Of a stretch of 64,000 nucleotides of DNA, positions 1 through 6,267 are shown in pieces. The notes beneath the pieces are model-generated. The model did not search any database, was not told where the DNA came from, and saw only the letters and a program-made list of their open reading frames with translations. The DNA comes from an uncultured Acidobacteriota bacterium. Its GTDB lineage: Bacteria; Acidobacteriota; UBA6911. The position numbers were made by a program, and so were the translations under genes. The stretch is from contig CAWHCF010000049.1 of NCBI GenBank assembly GCA_963827655.1, forward strand, positions 1 to 64,000, given 5' to 3'. The number at the start of each line of letters is the position of its first letter. The stretch's first letter is position 1.

Positions 1-214
1 GAGATAAGAAATTCGGCCGATCTGCGAGGGCGCGCAGTTCTGTGGTTGGAGAGCGGAAACGATCGCGTTCTCAGCCGAGCCCAATGGTGTGTGAATGCAG
101 TCCTACACAGGCATCGAGGCCGATGATCGAGCGGTGGCTGGACGGCAATGGCAGGTGAGCGCACCCGGCCCGCCGTGAGGCAGCTCAGTATCCGGTGCAG
201 AGTATCGCGTGAAC

Positions 215-357
215 TCAGGCCGCTCGACGGTAGTAGTACCGCAGCATGCCGCCGAGTCGCTCGCGGCACGCGATCTCGCCGGTAGTGCAGCCGCACTTCG
301 TCGCCCGCTTCGAATCAGCCGGTTGTCGAGCCCCTGGTGGTTTCGCTCTTCGTGATA
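215..357 (-). pseudogene. 3' fragment of the integrase-core transposase (YHEERNHQGLDNRLI...CRERLGGMLRYYYRRAA*)
   Basis: Typical C-terminal motifs; directly continues ...REFLIH from 3010; two extra single bases shift the frame. Confidence 0.85.
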
Positions 358-839
358 GAAGTCCGCAACACAATACCCCCAAATACGAAGTCCGCGAAGT
401 GCACTATCCCTGGCACCCGCTCTTCGGTCGACGAGTTCATGTTCACGGAGTCCTCCACAAACTCGGCCGGGATCTTTGTCGGTGTTGGCTGCCTGGGCAG
501 GAGGACCGGATTGGTTTCCAGGTGCCGGCATGGATGCTTGATCGAGCGCATTGTGCCCTCATGATCCTCCGAACCGGACCTGCGACAAACCTGCAGGCCC
601 TGCTTGAACTGAGACAGCTCTGCAACAAAATCGTTTTCCCTTCGGTTGTGACGCCAACCGAGCTGCGGCAAGCTACCCCCATTACCAATGGAGGGAATGT
701 CGATGCCAAAGCTCAGCGTCGCCCACGAACTGGCACAGCCCAGCTTGTTCGAATCAGCCCCAAAGCACCCTCGGTGGGAGGACTTACCGATGGACGTTCG
801 CCGGCGAGTCACCCGCCTTCTCTCGGCAACTGCTGTTAA
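357..839 (+). CDS. Small accessory protein of recombinase element (YPWHP...VPAWMLD motif, Y4bD/Y4pK- or DUF5372-like); start codon uncertain in integrated state
   Basis: EVHYPWHPLFGRRVHV and VPAWMLD motifs resemble ORFs found upstream of y4bA-type recombinases. The listed ATG at 246 lies outside the element. Confidence 0.6.
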   Translation, partial: RSPQHNTPKYEVREVHYPWHPLFGRRVHVHGVLHKLGRDLCRCWLPGQEDRIGFQVPAWMLDRAHCALMILRTGPATNLQALLELRQLCNKIVFPSVVTPTELRQATPITNGGNVDAKAQRRPRTGTAQLVRISPKAPSVGGLTDGRSPASHPPSLGNCC

Positions 840-891
840 ACAGGGGCGCCCAGTCACGTCTGTCCAGCGAAGCCGAAGGAGGAAACGATGA
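697..891 (+). CDS. Small hypothetical protein translationally coupled to recombinase
   Basis: GGAGGG RBS at about 690; QPSLF...PRWEDLP motif; ATGA overlap with recombinase start. Confidence 0.6.
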   Translation: MSMPKLSVAHELAQPSLFESAPKHPRWEDLPMDVRRRVTRLLSATAVKQGRPVTSVQRSRRRKR

Positions 892-2984
892 ATGAGAAGA
901 TCACGGACCGGCACTTACAGCGAAAGGCCATGTTGTACATCCGTCAGTCCTCGCCACATCAAGTCGCACACCACCAGGAAGGTCGTCGTCTGCAGTACGC
1001 AATGAGAGAGCGATTGCAGCAGTTGGGTTGGTCGGAGATCGAAGTCATCGATGAGGACCTCGGTCGCTCCGCTTCCGGGAGTGTCGAACGGACGGGCTTC
1101 GAGCGGATGGTGGCCGAAGTCTCTCTGGACCGGGTGGGTGCGGTTGCAGCCCGCGAGGTCTCACGTTTCGCCCGCAACAGTCGGGATTGGCAACAACTGG
1201 TAGAGGTGTGTCGAGTGGTGGATACGTTACTCGTCGATCAAGACGCAATCTATGACCCACGCCGAAGTAATGACCGCCTCCTTTTGGGTTTGAAAGGCAG
1301 CCTCAACGAGTATGAGCTGGATCTGCTTCGACATCGGGCGCAGGAGGCACGACGAGAAAAGGCACTGCGCGGAGAACTCATCGTAGTGCCGCCTGTGGGA
1401 TACGTGCAGGGTGAGGAAGGCGTCTATGAGAAAGATCCGGATCGGCGGGTTCAGCAGGCGATCCGGCAGGTCTTCGAGAAGTTCCTGGAACTGGGTTCCG
1501 TTCGGCAAGTGCTCTTCTGGTTTGTCGAGAACGATCTGCAGCTCCCGACACAACACTACGGGATCAAGGGTTGGCAGATCCGGTGGCGCCGACCAAACTA
1601 CGCAGCGGTGTATCGTGTGTTGACGCATCCCATCTATGCCGGGGCCTATGTCTACGGCATGACACAAACGCAGACGGTTTGGGACCACGGAAGACCTCGC
1701 AAGATCACGCGCTTCCGGCCCCGAGAGAAATGGCTTTCCTTGCTCCCAGACCGACATGAGGGTTATCTTGGCTGGGAGCAATTCCAGGGGATTCAGCAAA
1801 TGATCGCGGACAATGCGAATTGGCCCAAGGGAGAGAGTTGCGGCGCCGTGAAGGGGGGTGCCGCGCTGCTTGCAGGAATACTCCGGTGCCGCCGCTGTGG
1901 CAGAAAGCTGACCGTACACTACACAGGCCGCGAAGAAAATGTGATGCGCTACAACTGCTGCCGTGGCGCGCTGGACAATGGAGTGTCGCGCTGCATCAAC
2001 TTCGGCGGTGCCTTGGTCGATCAAGCGGTCGAGCGCGAAATCCTGAGGGTAATCCGGCCGGCGGCAGTCGAGGCCGCTCTGGAGGCAGCCCGGAACCAGA
2101 CGCAGGAACAGGGCCAGGTGCTGGCGGCACTGCAACTGGAGCTTCAGGCCGCTCGATACACAGCCGAACGGGCAGAGAAACAGTATGACTCAAGTGATCC
2201 TCAAAACCGCCTCGTCGCCGATGAACTGGAGCGGCGCTGGAACCGCGCACTGGAGCGGGTGGCAGAACTGGAACGTCGATTCGAGCAGGAGCAGAAACGA
2301 CGGCAACCACCCTGCTCGCTTGCAGCAGAGGAATTTGAGTCATTGGCTGGAGAGTTGGAGAGGATCTGGAACCATCCGGACACAGATGCTCGGCTGAAGA
2401 AGCGCATCGTACGAACTCTGATCGAAGAGGTTTTAGTGGATGTCCGTGCGGAGGCGGGCGAGATCCTGGTGACGATTCATTGGAAGGGAGGGGTTCATTC
2501 GGAACTCCGAGTGCCGCGGCGACGTCGCGGGCAGAACCGCTTACACACGGCATCGTCCACAGTGGAAGCAGTGCGGTTTCTGACGCGGATACTGTCCGAC
2601 GAGCAGATCGCCGCGTACCTCAATCGCAACGATCTACGCACCGGCAAGGGGAATCGTTGGACAGAGTCAGCAGTCGCCTCGTTGCGCAAGAAACGCAACC
2701 TGCCCAAGTACTCGGCCGAGTGCCGACAGGCGGAGGGTTGGATGACTCTCACGCAAGCCGCCTCGTTTCTCAGTATCAGTACAACCTCCCTGCGCCTGGC
2801 GGTCGAACGTCACGAGATCGAAGCCATCCATCCGCTTCCGGATGGACCATGGATCTTTCAGCGTGAAGACCTCCAACACTCCACGGCAAAGCAGCTGGTC
2901 GAGCGCATTCAACAACGACGACGAGAGGGCACTGAACCAGATTCTCGGCAGCTCCCTCTTGGCATACTCAACAACATAGCGTGA
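888..2984 (+). CDS. Large serine recombinase (resolvase + recombinase + Zn ribbon + C-terminal HTH), y4bA-like
   Basis: YIRQSS catalytic Ser, EDLGRSASG, SRFARN, CRRCG zinc ribbon, coiled coil, WMTLTQAA HTH. Confidence 0.95.
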   Translation: MNEKITDRHLQRKAMLYIRQSSPHQVAHHQEGRRLQYAMRERLQQLGWSEIEVIDEDLGRSASGSVERTGFERMVAEVSLDRVGAVAAREVSRFARNSRDWQQLVEVCRVVDTLLVDQDAIYDPRRSNDRLLLGLKGSLNEYELDLLRHRAQEARREKALRGELIVVPPVGYVQGEEGVYEKDPDRRVQQAIRQVFEKFLELGSVRQVLFWFVENDLQLPTQHYGIKGWQIRWRRPNYAAVYRVLTHPIYAGAYVYGMTQTQTVWDHGRPRKITRFRPREKWLSLLPDRHEGYLGWEQFQGIQQMIADNANWPKGESCGAVKGGAALLAGILRCRRCGRKLTVHYTGREENVMRYNCCRGALDNGVSRCINFGGALVDQAVEREILRVIRPAAVEAALEAARNQTQEQGQVLAALQLELQAARYTAERAEKQYDSSDPQNRLVADELERRWNRALERVAELERRFEQEQKRRQPPCSLAAEEFESLAGELERIWNHPDTDARLKKRIVRTLIEEVLVDVRAEAGEILVTIHWKGGVHSELRVPRRRRGQNRLHTASSTVEAVRFLTRILSDEQIAAYLNRNDLRTGKGNRWTESAVASLRKKRNLPKYSAECRQAEGWMTLTQAASFLSISTTSLRLAVERHEIEAIHPLPDGPWIFQREDLQHSTAKQLVERIQQRRREGTEPDSRQLPLGILNNIA

Positions 2985-3006
2985 GGTGGCATTATGAAGC
3001 GCAGCT

Positions 3007-3978
3007 CTAATGGATGAGGAATTCACGAACGGCGTTCCGCAGAGCCATTTCCCCGAAGAAAACCATTCGGTGCAAGCATTCGTCCTTCACCGTCCGCATG
3101 AACCGTTCGATATGTGGATTCAGATCTGGTGAGCGCGGCGGCAACCGCACAGCCTGTACGCCGGCTTGCTCGAGGATTGACCGGAACGCGTCGGAGAACT
3201 TCGTGTCGCGATCCATCAGCAGGTACTTCTTGCCACGCAGGAATCCATCATCGGCGTCGCTGAGATTGCGCGCGACCTGGAGCATCCAGAGATCGTGAGG
3301 ATTCGCGGTGCACCCGGCAAAGTGCACCCGCCGCGTCGCCAACTCCATGACAAAGAGCAGGTAGAACGTGACTAGCCCGCCCTTTGTCCAGACCTCGATC
3401 GTCGTGAAATCGACGGAGGCCAGGACATCCCAATGGGCCCGGATGAAGCTCTTCCATGTCGACTGGCGCTTTCGATCCGGCGCCGGATCGACGCCATGGG
3501 CCTTTAGAATGCTACCGACCGTGGTGTCGGAGATCTCATGGCCAAGATTAGCCAGCGCGCCCTGGATGCGGTCGTAACCCCAGGTTGGGTTCTCACGGGC
3601 CATGCGCAGTATGAGTTCAACAATCTCGTCTGGAGTGGGCGGCCGCCCGATCTTGTTGCGTCGCCCACTGTAGTTCCATTTGGCAGCCACCAATTCCCGA
3701 TGCCAGCGCAGGATCGTATCCGGAGTTACGATAGTGGCAACCTCTTGCAGCATCTTCCGGCCGAGGATCTTGCCTTTGACTGCCAGACGGCGCCGCTGGT
3801 CATCGTCGAGCAGGATGCGTTTTTTGCCGAGCTTCTCTTTGAGGATCTGGTTTTCCGTGCGCAGGTACTCGATAGCATCCTGCTGCCGGTGATTGATCCA
3901 GCCGGCCAGAATCAGAAGCAACAAATGCCAGGGCTCTAGAAAGGACTTCATATCTCTCCGAATGCCGTGTGAAAACAT
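3007..3978 (-). pseudogene. Integrase-core transposase, 5' part (interrupted)
   Basis: ENPTWGYDRIQG, VDFTT, MDRDTKF, PPRSPDLNPHIERF motifs; premature TAG created by the insertion junction. Confidence 0.9.
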
Positions 3979-4173: not shown

Positions 4174-4440
4174 TCTAGCCACCCCCGGCACAGAGCGTGT
4201 CTTCCGGAACGTCGGTTAGACTCTCGAAGGACAGGTCGTATCCGTCCGGGTCCGAGACCTGGGTGACCCACATGCCGTCCCCAACGAAGGGTCGTTTGGC
4301 GGAAAGGCCGCGCGCTACAAAGTCGCACCATAGGGCCACAGCGTCTTTGCAGATGAAATTGATCGACTACCTATGCCCACCTTCACGTCGGGCAGGTTGC
4401 GGTGAGGTCCCTCCTTCCAGAACTCCTGCAACATGATTTC
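4174..4440 (-). pseudogene. VOC/glyoxalase family protein, 3' fragment, frameshifted
   Basis: MLQEFWKEG...KVG, then RPFVGDGMWVTQVSDPDGYDLSFES in another frame. Confidence 0.65.
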
Positions 4441-4635
4441 GGCAACTCGACCCATCAGTTTGTCGTAGTTCACGCCGTCGAAAAACCTCTCCAGGTCCAG
4501 ATCCACCACCCAGCGGTATCCTTCAGCGATATACTGCTGCGCTTTCCGGACCGCCTGATGCGCTGAGCGCCCAGGGCGAAATCCGTGGCTGTGTTCAGAA
4601 AACGTCCGGTCCCATCGGCTCTGCAGTACCTGCAT
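4441..4635 (-). pseudogene. Group II intron reverse transcriptase internal fragment
   Basis: QVLQ..WD.TFSEHSHGFRPGRSAHQAV...WVVDLDLERFFD.VN.DKLM; no YADD region, no intron ends seen. Confidence 0.9.
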
Positions 4636-4720
4636 CGACCGGAGGTGATGGTCGGCAAGCGACGGGCGGGCGTCCCAAAGGTAGCGACGGCGAGGCGTGA
4701 GCCGACGTCTGAGGCGGACT

Positions 4721-5422
4721 TCATCCATGGAGCGTAACTTTGCCGGTCGCCAGATCGTAGATACCGGATTCGACCCGGAGCTTGGCTGCTTTCAAAGCGT
4801 CGCGAACTACAGTCGAGGATGTGCGCAACAAATTGGCCTGAAACTTGGCGTTGTTTGAAATCGCTTTCCCGAGGTCGCCGCCGGAGTGTTCAACCGAGGA
4901 CTGGATATGCTGGTAAAGCGCGCTGATTTGACCAGGAACGGCGTCGGCCTTCATGGCAGCTTTTACGGCTCCGCAGCCCGTGTGACCGAGCACGAGGAGA
5001 ACCTTGACGCCGAGGGCGACGACGGCGTATTCGAGACTCGCAATGATTTCCGGCGTGACGATATTGCCGGCGACGCGAGTGACAAAGATGTGACCGATGG
5101 TCTGATCAAAAACGAGTTCGATGGGAACGCGCGAGTCGGCACAGGCGAGGACGGCGGCAAAGGGCTCCTGCTTCTCGACTGTGTTTTCCTTGAGAATCCT
5201 TAGGTCGTGCTCGATGGAGGTGAGTTGATTGTTGTCAAAGCGCTCGTTGCCCGTCATGAGTGCACGAAGCGCTGCGTCGGGAGTCAACGGTGTTTGAGCC
5301 AGGAGGGGCCGAGGCAGGGCTACCTCGATTCCGGCCACGGCAGCGCCAGCTACCGCACCTGAGAGCACATTCCTGAGAAACTGTCTTCTAGCGATCGGAT
5401 TGGTGATGGTCTGCTCTGGCAT
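4721..5422 (-). CDS. Beta-class carbonic anhydrase with Tat signal peptide
   Basis: CADSRV and HTGCGA Zn ligands; RRQFL twin-arginine motif; AAAGGAG RBS. Confidence 0.93.
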   Translation of the reverse strand: MPEQTITNPIARRQFLRNVLSGAVAGAAVAGIEVALPRPLLAQTPLTPDAALRALMTGNERFDNNQLTSIEHDLRILKENTVEKQEPFAAVLACADSRVPIELVFDQTIGHIFVTRVAGNIVTPEIIASLEYAVVALGVKVLLVLGHTGCGAVKAAMKADAVPGQISALYQHIQSSVEHSGGDLGKAISNNAKFQANLLRTSSTVVRDALKAAKLRVESGIYDLATGKVTLHG

Positions 5423-5541: not shown

Positions 5542-5648
5542 TAAGCCGCTGGCGCGGCAGATGGGAGAGTGCGACGGTGCCGCTATGACCTGACCCTGGG
5601 GGAAGCGGATACTTCTCACACATTCAACTCACTGTGAGGAGGCATCCC

Positions 5649-6267
5649 ATGACCCCATTGCGTCAACAGATGATGGCCGCACTCGAACTCAACGGCAAGA
5701 GTCCCGCCACCGTCGAAGCCTATGTCCGCGAAGTCGCCCTGGTCGCCAAGTTCTACCGCAAGCGTCCCGATCTGATCTCCGAAGAAGAACTCGTCCGCTA
5801 TCTGCTCCACCGCAAGAATGTCAACAAGCTCGCTCCCACTTCCATGCGTATCTGCTATAGCGGCCTCCGCTTCTTCTATCAGCGCGTCTTGGCCCGCGAG
5901 TGGAAGATCTTCGCTCTCTTGCGCGCCCGCCGCGAACTCCGCCGCCCTTGTGTGTTAAGCCGCGCCGAGGTGCACCGGATCCTGAAAGCCGCCTACCCCT
6001 TTCACAACCAGGTCTATTTCACCACCGTCTACAGTTGCGGTCTACGCCTGCATGAGGCCCTGCATCTGGAAATCGGTGATATCGATAGCCAGCGCGGACG
6101 CTGCACGTCCATCGTGGCAAGGGCGCACGCGACCGCGTCTTGCCCCTGCCCGTGCAAACCCTGCTCCTGCTCCGCCAGTACTGGAAATCGCATCGTCATC
6201 CCCGCCTGCTGTTTCCCGCCACCGGCCAGAATCACCAGCGAGCGTCCACCACCGCCGCTCCCATGAG
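5649..6267 (+). pseudogene. Tyrosine recombinase (SAM-like N-domain; type usually paired with IS91-like transposase), frameshifted and truncated by IS1
   Basis: MTPLRQQM...YSCGLRLHEAL, then (G)KG.RDR.LPL in a shifted frame; stops at the IS1 inverted repeat before the HxLRH/Y motifs. Confidence 0.85.

Follow-up and report, generated by a model that had tools for sequence, protein, structure and literature searches.

Mobile elements must behave differently when they are integrated and when they are free, and two ways of doing so are known, namely promoters that form at the joint of a circle and, in archaea, an integrase gene that is broken by integration. Could a bacterial element carry a gene that is whole only when its own two ends are joined? 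This question is raised by a discrete element of 2652 bp at positions 358-3009 of a 64,000-nucleotide stretch of DNA from an uncultured Acidobacteriota bacterium (contig CAWHCF010000049.1, positions 1 to 64,000; hereafter the window), for which an initial annotation had proposed that excision supplies a Shine-Dalgarno (SD) site and an in-frame ATG to the first open reading frame (ORF) of the element, here called orfA. We establish the anatomy and the boundaries of this element and the conservation of the start, the SD site and the frame among its relatives, and we weigh the reading that orfA is a gene split by integration against its alternatives.

A proposed detached start at the far end of the element

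The element is flanked by a duplicated TA and interrupts an rve-type transposase gene on the minus strand. Its boundaries, which the initial annotation had assumed, proved to be right: deletion of 358-3009 plus one TA puts the transposase back into a single frame, and one DNA contig from a soil run (X2) represents the empty site, joining 355 to 3008 and skipping 2652 bases (this contig has two ambiguous letters, and its shorter side measures 36 letters). A 2-bp crossover with the same dinucleotide at both junctions is expected of large serine recombinases, and in the window this dinucleotide is TA. The terminal inverted repeat is weak (14/22 positions match) and is not among the 25 best pairs of a repeat search. 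In its own genome the element is present once, together with a diverged relative on another contig (L002, also C19).

Three genes run in one direction, namely orfA, a small orfB in the +1 frame of the orfA tail and a recombinase gene; orfB had escaped the initial annotation, as had the open upstream frame and the extra base described below. As had been noted, GAGGTGG and then an ATG (2994) follow the recombinase stop and point out of the element; in the integrated state this ATG opens a reading of only seven codons (MKRSSNG*). Joining 3009 to 358 is in frame, because a codon of the frame that ends with the TAA at 837-839 begins at 360, and the joined ORF has 165 codons. There is no ATG in the orfA frame between 358 and the HYPWHP codons (402-419), again as described. 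It had further been claimed that the accessory protein is made only from the circle. What stands of this claim is that the gene is probably split, with its start at the far end; the word ‘only’ is too strong for the window copy, because an in-frame GTG lies ahead of the motif at 399 and the orfA frame is open upstream into the flank as far as an ATG at 246. The window by itself makes a weak case, as a join is in frame with odds of 1 in 3 and 62% of random 26-codon windows are free of stops, and the argument against chance therefore rests on the relatives.

Conservation of the start, the frame and the SD site among relatives

A protein search returned 9 close homologues, the gene calls of which all extend upstream into flanking DNA. 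A scan limited to a single genome of each species yielded 38 loci (Acidimicrobiia, Alphaproteobacteria, Acidobacteriota, Chloroflexota, Gemmatimonadales, Myxococcota, Margulisiibacteriota and others), and a metagenome scan added 80 further loci that belong to one subfamily (L051-L130). On plasmids, orfA was found in 277 records, mostly from Rhizobium, Sinorhizobium, Bradyrhizobium and Agrobacterium; no annotated feature lies under the orfA match in 28 of the 30 plasmid rows listed, where it should be kept in mind that the PLSDB feature table omits pseudogenes, so that some copies may be annotated as such. A profile search for the orfA family (HMMER) matched 4354 cluster representatives at E ≤ 0.001, and a scan of viral contigs found no relative.

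The ends of these elements were fixed in several ways. A Rhodobacterales genome (L030-L041) carries 11 near-identical copies with identical ends, an AT core and three different flank pairs; most of these copies occupy a repeated site, where either orientation occurs, and L035 is found at an unrelated one. Four Acetobacteraceae elements (L012, L014, L015, L017) lie at different sites with a TA core, and elsewhere an IstB, IS66 or rve gene becomes readable again when the flanks are joined with a single core between them. The inverted-repeat score alone failed to find the ends in 6/20 cases (L011, L019, L021, L023, L024, L029), and these six right ends were placed by positional homology and a matching core; one core base is mismatched in L029, L042 and L048. 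In total we compared 48 right ends, 21 from genomes, plasmids and the element's own genome (set A) and 27 from metagenomes. The core dinucleotides are equal at both ends in 38 of 45 elements. From the left core to the His codon of HYPWHP the distance is 46 nt in all end-fixed relatives apart from L045, where it is 49 nt, and these 3 nt are the only variation in length observed from the left end to the motif.

The codon 14 nt before the right core is ATG in 45/48 ends, GTG in 2/48 (L014, L015) and GCG in 1/48 (L012). The initial annotation had named a random frame across the joint in homologues as a test of its proposal; the frame is not random, since all 45 reconstructed joints are free of stops into HYPWHP (45/45 vs. 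4521/7260, or 62%, of random 26-codon windows of the same sequences), with the caution that the joints come from related copies and are not 45 independent trials. The SD site at the right end is indeed strong, with a median duplex of -7.9 kcal/mol in both sets vs. -2.4 kcal/mol for 7043 random ATGs (15 nt upstream of the start paired with the anti-Shine-Dalgarno motif). Values of -6 kcal/mol or below were found in 16/21 ends of set A and 25/27 metagenome ends vs. 11% of random ATGs; the two metagenome exceptions (L106, L114) are artefacts, in which an upstream ATG within the purine run was taken as the start. The rival start at GTG399 is not conserved, as it occurs at that codon only in the window and L013, and 25/32 rows have no in-frame ATG, GTG or TTG from the left end to the motif; the Met of PAWMLD is the earliest in-frame start codon of C19, L020, L024 and L030.

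Translational coupling to the recombinase, which had also been proposed, fits the relatives: the recombinase stop overlaps the orfA ATG in some lineages, as TAATG in L030 and as ATGA in L043, L048, L074, L084, L086 and L101. At the other end of the gene, the frame of orfA (frame A) is open across orfB in most lineages, and its stop TGA overlaps the recombinase ATG in 18/32 rows. The two kinds of overlap, recombinase stop with orfA start and orfA stop with recombinase start, would thus chain the frames together in the joined form. From this comparative anatomy we judge it likely that orfA is a gene that is split by integration and restored in the excised form.

Table 1. Features of the element and of the gene it interrupts, in window coordinates.
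Feature	Coordinates	Strand	Remarks
C-terminal remainder of the interrupted transposase	103..357	-	Starts with the YHEERNHQGL reading; no Pfam match alone
Left TA crossover dinucleotide (target duplication)	356..357		Empty-site contig joins 355 to 3008
Left arm of recombination site	358..383	+	Overlaps first codons of orfA body (RSPQHNTP)
orfA body	360..839	+	HYPWHP at 402-419, PAWMLDRA further on, stop TAA 837-839; residues 8-95 modelled at pLDDT about 95
orfB, small conserved ORF	690..891	+	+1 frame of orfA; kept in all lineages displayed
One extra base compared with relatives	828..828	+	P0001-P0005 continue in the other frame
Large serine recombinase, 698 aa	888..2984	+	Stop TGA 2982-2984
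Shine-Dalgarno-like GAGGTGG	2983..2989	+	Overlaps recombinase stop; duplex -7.8 kcal/mol
Detached orfA start, ATG plus four codons ending in crossover TA	2994..3009	+	Within right arm of recombination site
Right TA crossover dinucleotide	3008..3009		Sequence and empty-site contig
rve-type DDE transposase, N-terminal 323 codons of interrupted target	3010..3978	-	HTH_32, rve_3, rve

A palindromic recombination site and other explanations

The main caveat comes from the recombination site, which is palindromic. Its two arms share the motif NCA(T/C)-N-N-(T/C)-G/A-CC (NCAT-N-N-TGCC) at 11-20 nt from the core, and the ATG of the right arm is the complement of the left-arm CAT/CAC that encodes the conserved His of S-x-x-H-S-A-H. 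As 24 nt separate the two, the symmetry of the site by itself puts them in frame, and the conservation of ATG and frame could thus follow from the geometry of the recombinase site alone and is partly forced. On such an explanation the recombinase reads the ATG, part of the purine run and the fixed spacing as DNA in an attP-like site, and OrfA is made by other means in the integrated state (from a rare or non-canonical start, by read-through from the flank, or as an N-terminally shorter protein). Strong constraint at the DNA level is evident in the IS66-targeting subfamily, where 18 nt of the left arm, from +13 to +30 of the core, hardly vary at any of the three codon positions among 66 distinct sequences; the conserved H-S-A-H-I-G residues of OrfA, which these nucleotides encode, probably reflect the needs of recombinase binding and not those of the protein. 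The G-run of the SD site belongs in part (GGGCA) to the shared arm motif, and the four leader codons show little constraint at the protein level, with codons 3 and 4 varying freely. However, as judged by eye, only the right arm has a purine-rich run that extends past the shared motif, and no SD site stands at its mirror position in the left arm. Where the right arm keeps ATG or GTG (47/48 ends), the left arm may have CAC, TGC or CGG. Overlaps of the ATGA and TAATG type are signatures of translation and not features of a binding site, and most lineages have no start within the element for the most conserved part of OrfA. As the alignments stand, symmetry leaves unexplained the purine run, the constancy of the start, the stop-start overlaps, the lack of another start and the indel of exactly 3 nt, and we give the view that the split start is a by-product of the recombination site a small though appreciable chance.

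Several further observations weigh against a gene restored by excision. L012 has GCG and hence no start at the canonical position, with an in-frame ATG 9 nt upstream, and five of the 21 ends of set A (L012, L014, L015, L018, L049, all of one subfamily) have a weak SD match of -3 to -4 kcal/mol. In 7/32 rows, the window included, the motif is closely preceded by an in-frame GTG or ATG, and the open frame continues into the flank in every copy, so that translation by read-through may occur; the rows with such starts and the subfamily with the weak SD match also count in favour of the by-product explanation. The core dinucleotides differ between the two ends in 7/45 elements. A promoter scan found 0 promoter-like sites in 200-3200. 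No joint of a circle or tandem was seen in any locus (0 matches to a regular expression for start, leader and left end), nor any back-joint in the contigs of four runs (X1, X2, X3, X16), which as contigs cannot show rare forms. Finally, a difference of 1 nt alters orfB in the window (see below), and because of it this copy may be slightly impaired in orfB and not fully functional.

Two other explanations concern the right-end start and orfA itself. The start points out of the element, so it might serve the flank, by making a short peptide or by loading ribosomes or RNA polymerase antisense to the insertion sequence (IS) gene, and since IS66-targeting elements are always antisense to their target a fixed outward product is conceivable. 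The outward ORF of the integrated state is, however, not fixed in length (median 28 codons, range 5-200 in 42 copies) and has only seven codons in the window, no outward product is conserved, and the start is kept while the flanks differ by subfamily (rve, IstB, IS66 and non-IS sites); outward translation therefore seems to us very improbable. That orfA is non-coding, with HYPWHP and PAWMLD as DNA or RNA elements (for instance accessory binding sites) and an open frame owed to high G+C, would agree with the lack of a Pfam or NCBIfam family, with the missing gene annotation in most plasmid records and with the constraint on the first 25 nt as DNA. We find it scarcely credible: downstream of the left arm the third codon position is 2.6 times as variable as positions 1 and 2 (entropy of 0.42, 0.43 and 1.12 bits at the three positions, 66 distinct sequences of the IS66-targeting subfamily), the HYPWHP codons have synonymous variants across lineages, and 2317 cluster representatives match the profile at E ≤ 1e-10.

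An AlphaFold2 model of OrfA (28 sequences) likewise speaks for a protein, with a predicted local distance difference test (pLDDT) score of about 95 over residues 11-70, four strands, three helices and a disordered tail. OrfA matches no Pfam or NCBIfam family, and fold searches returned only generic SH3-, KOW-, Tudor- or chromo-like barrels (best Foldseek E 0.076; best match of the VIA search Z 5.7 with a root-mean-square deviation of 2.0 over 46 residues; retroviral integrase C-terminal domain Z 4.8). No function follows from fold matches to this predicted model. No match to a known recombination directionality factor (RDF) was seen in sequence or fold (Pfam, NCBIfam, fold searches).

Candidate joints and joint products

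Two loci (L106 and L123) in which the 3′ end of a recombinase gene lies about 120 nt upstream of orfA were considered as joints and rejected, as each holds two different elements about 40 bp apart. In both (L106 at about 200-410, L123 at about 2500-2680) these stand head to tail in one IS66 gene, within the same motif region, and may thus represent two subfamilies whose target positions are adjacent. Gene calls with a six-residue leader (M-x-F-C-P-E) were also dropped as joint products, because this leader matches the conserved reading of the IS66 flank. Among the proteins collected, four gene calls have the exact geometry of a joint, with nine residues before the His. In two of the calls (P0039, P0043), which start with M plus four residues, the leaders resemble those encoded by right ends of the IS66 subfamily and not flank readings, which is suggestive of products derived from a joint.

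The recombinase, orfB and an extra base

The recombinase of the window has the domain order of large serine recombinases, an N-terminal resolvase domain, a recombinase domain and a zinc ribbon (Pfam Resolvase, residues 15-163, 1e-18; Recombinase, 189-309, 2e-16; Zn_ribbon_recom, 327-385, 3e-07), and no match to DUF4368 is present at E ≤ 0.1. A YIRQSS stretch near residue 17 of its translation we take to be the catalytic serine motif. Within its C-terminal region, contigs of three soil or rhizosphere runs (X1, X2, X3) skip 99 bases (33 codons) at 2870-2968.

The overlapping ORF at 688-891 was considered as an artefact or a mere alternative frame of orfA, and this was dropped, as it encodes a conserved +1-frame peptide with its own start; its conservation was seen by three-frame translation of the region in 24 loci. 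In the window GGAGGG stands at 690-695, the likely start is ATG 703 (other ATGs lie at 688 and 697) and the stop TGA at 889-891 overlaps the recombinase ATG. Relatives of OrfB have 56-73 aa, a purine-rich stretch and a Met of their own, and they end at or just past the recombinase ATG; they share a Q-L-x-L stretch and a W-x-D-L-P ... L-L helix, and most of them have a tail that is acidic. On plasmid pRL10 of Rhizobium johnstonii 3841 (copy L049) the Prokaryotic Genome Annotation Pipeline (PGAP) calls the orfB homologue and the recombinase and makes no call over orfA. In the gene calls P0039 and P0118, orfB is fused in a single frame with the orfA domain. A complex prediction for OrfB and the N-terminal domain of OrfA returned a score of 0.00, which gives no verdict and counts neither way for binding.

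With its extra base at 828 the window copy differs from its relatives in that frame A ends at 839, 50 nt short of the recombinase start, and the tail of OrfB turns from acidic to basic. Without this base the tail would be acidic as in C19, and frame A would reach the recombinase ATG. The base near 828 is left out in the sole X1 contig that covers the place and is kept in an X3 contig.

Targets of the family and the neighbourhood of the element

The elements insert where other IS genes encode conserved motifs, and each subfamily has its own target. In rve transposases this is H-Y/Y-N..RPH (window, L012, L018, and by reading C19 and L011); in IstB it is the Walker A loop, at about position 101 of the 238 of the profile (L025, L034, L045); and in IS66 transposases it lies between ..A-L-R-G-I-A and G-R-K-N-x-L-F (L043, by Pfam). 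The IS66 motif was found by regular expression in 52/69 metagenome left flanks, and by eye 8 of the 17 misses read GR(K/R)N..FAGSD.

The second element of the same genome, L002, shares 68% DNA identity over 641 nt with that of the window, has intact orfA, orfB and recombinase genes, and is inserted at the C-Y/Y-N-F-V-R-P-H reading of another gene; a like site is used by L011, in an Acidimicrobiia genome. Just past the disrupted transposase of the window follow an ORF fragment at 4315-4728 (-), presumably of a reverse transcriptase judging by its translation, and an ORF at 5634-6266 (+), the translation of which we take to be the start of a tyrosine recombinase; overall, this part of the window resembles a dumping ground for mobile elements.

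Relation to known systems

The element of the window and 47/48 right ends have the anatomy of junction-dependent expression, with the signal at one end and the gene at the other. In Tn4451/Tn4453 (TnpX), as Lyras and Rood reportedly described in 2000, end joining creates a promoter for the recombinase gene. Like these transposons of Clostridium, which move through a circular intermediate, the present element is small and has a large serine recombinase, and joining of its ends would likewise create a signal for expression. Here, however, what the joint would complete is an accessory gene, in its coding sequence and its ribosome-binding site, and not a promoter; no promoter-like site was found in 200-3200. 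DUF4368 is common in transposing serine recombinases of the TnpX/TndX type, according to a 2021 bioRxiv preprint; the window recombinase, in which it was not matched at the threshold given above, differs from this clade in that respect.

In ICEclc and ICEKp1 a promoter at one end (Pcirc and P3'end, respectively) drives int across attP only when the element is excised (PMC13023037). As in these integrative and conjugative elements (ICEs), signal and gene stand at opposite ends when integrated, from which state-dependent expression would follow here too. The ICEs are elements of about 100 kb with a tyrosine recombinase and a promoter signal, whereas the present element measures 2.65 kb, has a serine recombinase and would be split within an ORF five codons after the ATG. 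The recombination site also lies within a gene of the element in the archaeal suicidal integrases of the SSV type, which are whole only in the free circle and are described as exclusive to archaea in a review (PMC8371274). Integration splits a gene of the element there and would do so here, but the SSV-type enzymes are tyrosine recombinases whose own gene is broken, while here the host is bacterial, the recombinase ORF at 888-2984 is intact and of the serine type, and the gene split would be an accessory one. With the recombinase intact, excision would remain possible.

Joints of IS circles are a further parallel. In IS911, IS2, IS30, IS492 and IS110/IS1111 the circle joint creates a signal that boosts the genes of the element and drives re-insertion. 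These elements have DDE or DEDD transposases, and their joint assembles -35 and -10 boxes, not a start codon with an ORF. Serine transposases of the IS607 family are small and carry the DNA-binding domain ahead of the catalytic domain (PMC4058570). The window protein differs, with 698 aa and an N-terminal catalytic domain. Small accessory RDFs such as gp3 of phiC31 and gp47 of Bxb1 set the direction of large serine recombinases. The RDFs known so far are expressed by the integrated prophage and permit it to excise, whereas OrfA would be made after excision. No publication that we found describes a bacterial element with a serine recombinase in which the ribosome-binding site and the start of an accessory gene are kept at the opposite end from the rest of that gene; the literature search returned nothing on the family, its IS targets, y4bA or a start codon at a circle joint, and supplements outside this search may hold target lists of large serine recombinases.

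Proposed mechanism and significance

We propose that crossover takes place between codons 5 and 6 of orfA. Integration would then leave the first part of the gene (ribosome-binding site, ATG and first five codons) at the right end, after the recombinase stop, and some 160 codons that lack a start at the left end. Once the recombinase has brought the two ends together, be it in a circle or in a head-to-tail tandem, whole orfA would come to lie directly behind the recombinase gene, where it could be translated by coupling or from its own SD site. In most relatives frame A would then run to the TGA that overlaps the recombinase ATG, so that the three genes would form a closed ring of coupled reading frames. 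With its own start, orfB would be available in both states, and OrfA would be a marker of the excised one. OrfA (an SH3-like barrel plus helices in the model) might act after excision, by promoting re-integration, by selecting the target or by holding back further excision. That circles form, that they are translated and that OrfA acts after excision is what we infer from sequence. We put forward only tentatively, as an outcome we think rather doubtful, the full picture of a very large family of 2.6-kb elements that hunt other insertion sequences, inserting into the DNA for their most conserved motifs (GRKNWLF in the case of IS66), and that have a ring operon with a first gene present only in the excised circle. 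OrfA would then be an excised-state factor that steers toward integration and away from re-excision. DNA topology would in that event be a memory that decides which accessory protein is made, the reverse of the RDF logic of phages.

If orfA is indeed split in the way proposed, thousands of such genes are invisible to gene callers; in the protein library, calls of orfA begin at arbitrary codons of the flank. The arrangement would be a compact natural switch gated by recombination, and it may offer a handle on how direction is set in a serine recombinase that both excises and integrates. The copy on pRL10 of Rhizobium johnstonii 3841, a laboratory strain, makes the idea directly testable. The family would also be a source of recombinases with predictable targets that encode protein motifs. 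As these targets are conserved motifs of IS3/IS481-type, IS21 and IS66 genes, they point to a layer of parasitism among insertion sequences. The element of the window, bacterial and with a serine recombinase, appears to solve the problem of telling its integrated from its free state at the level of translation.

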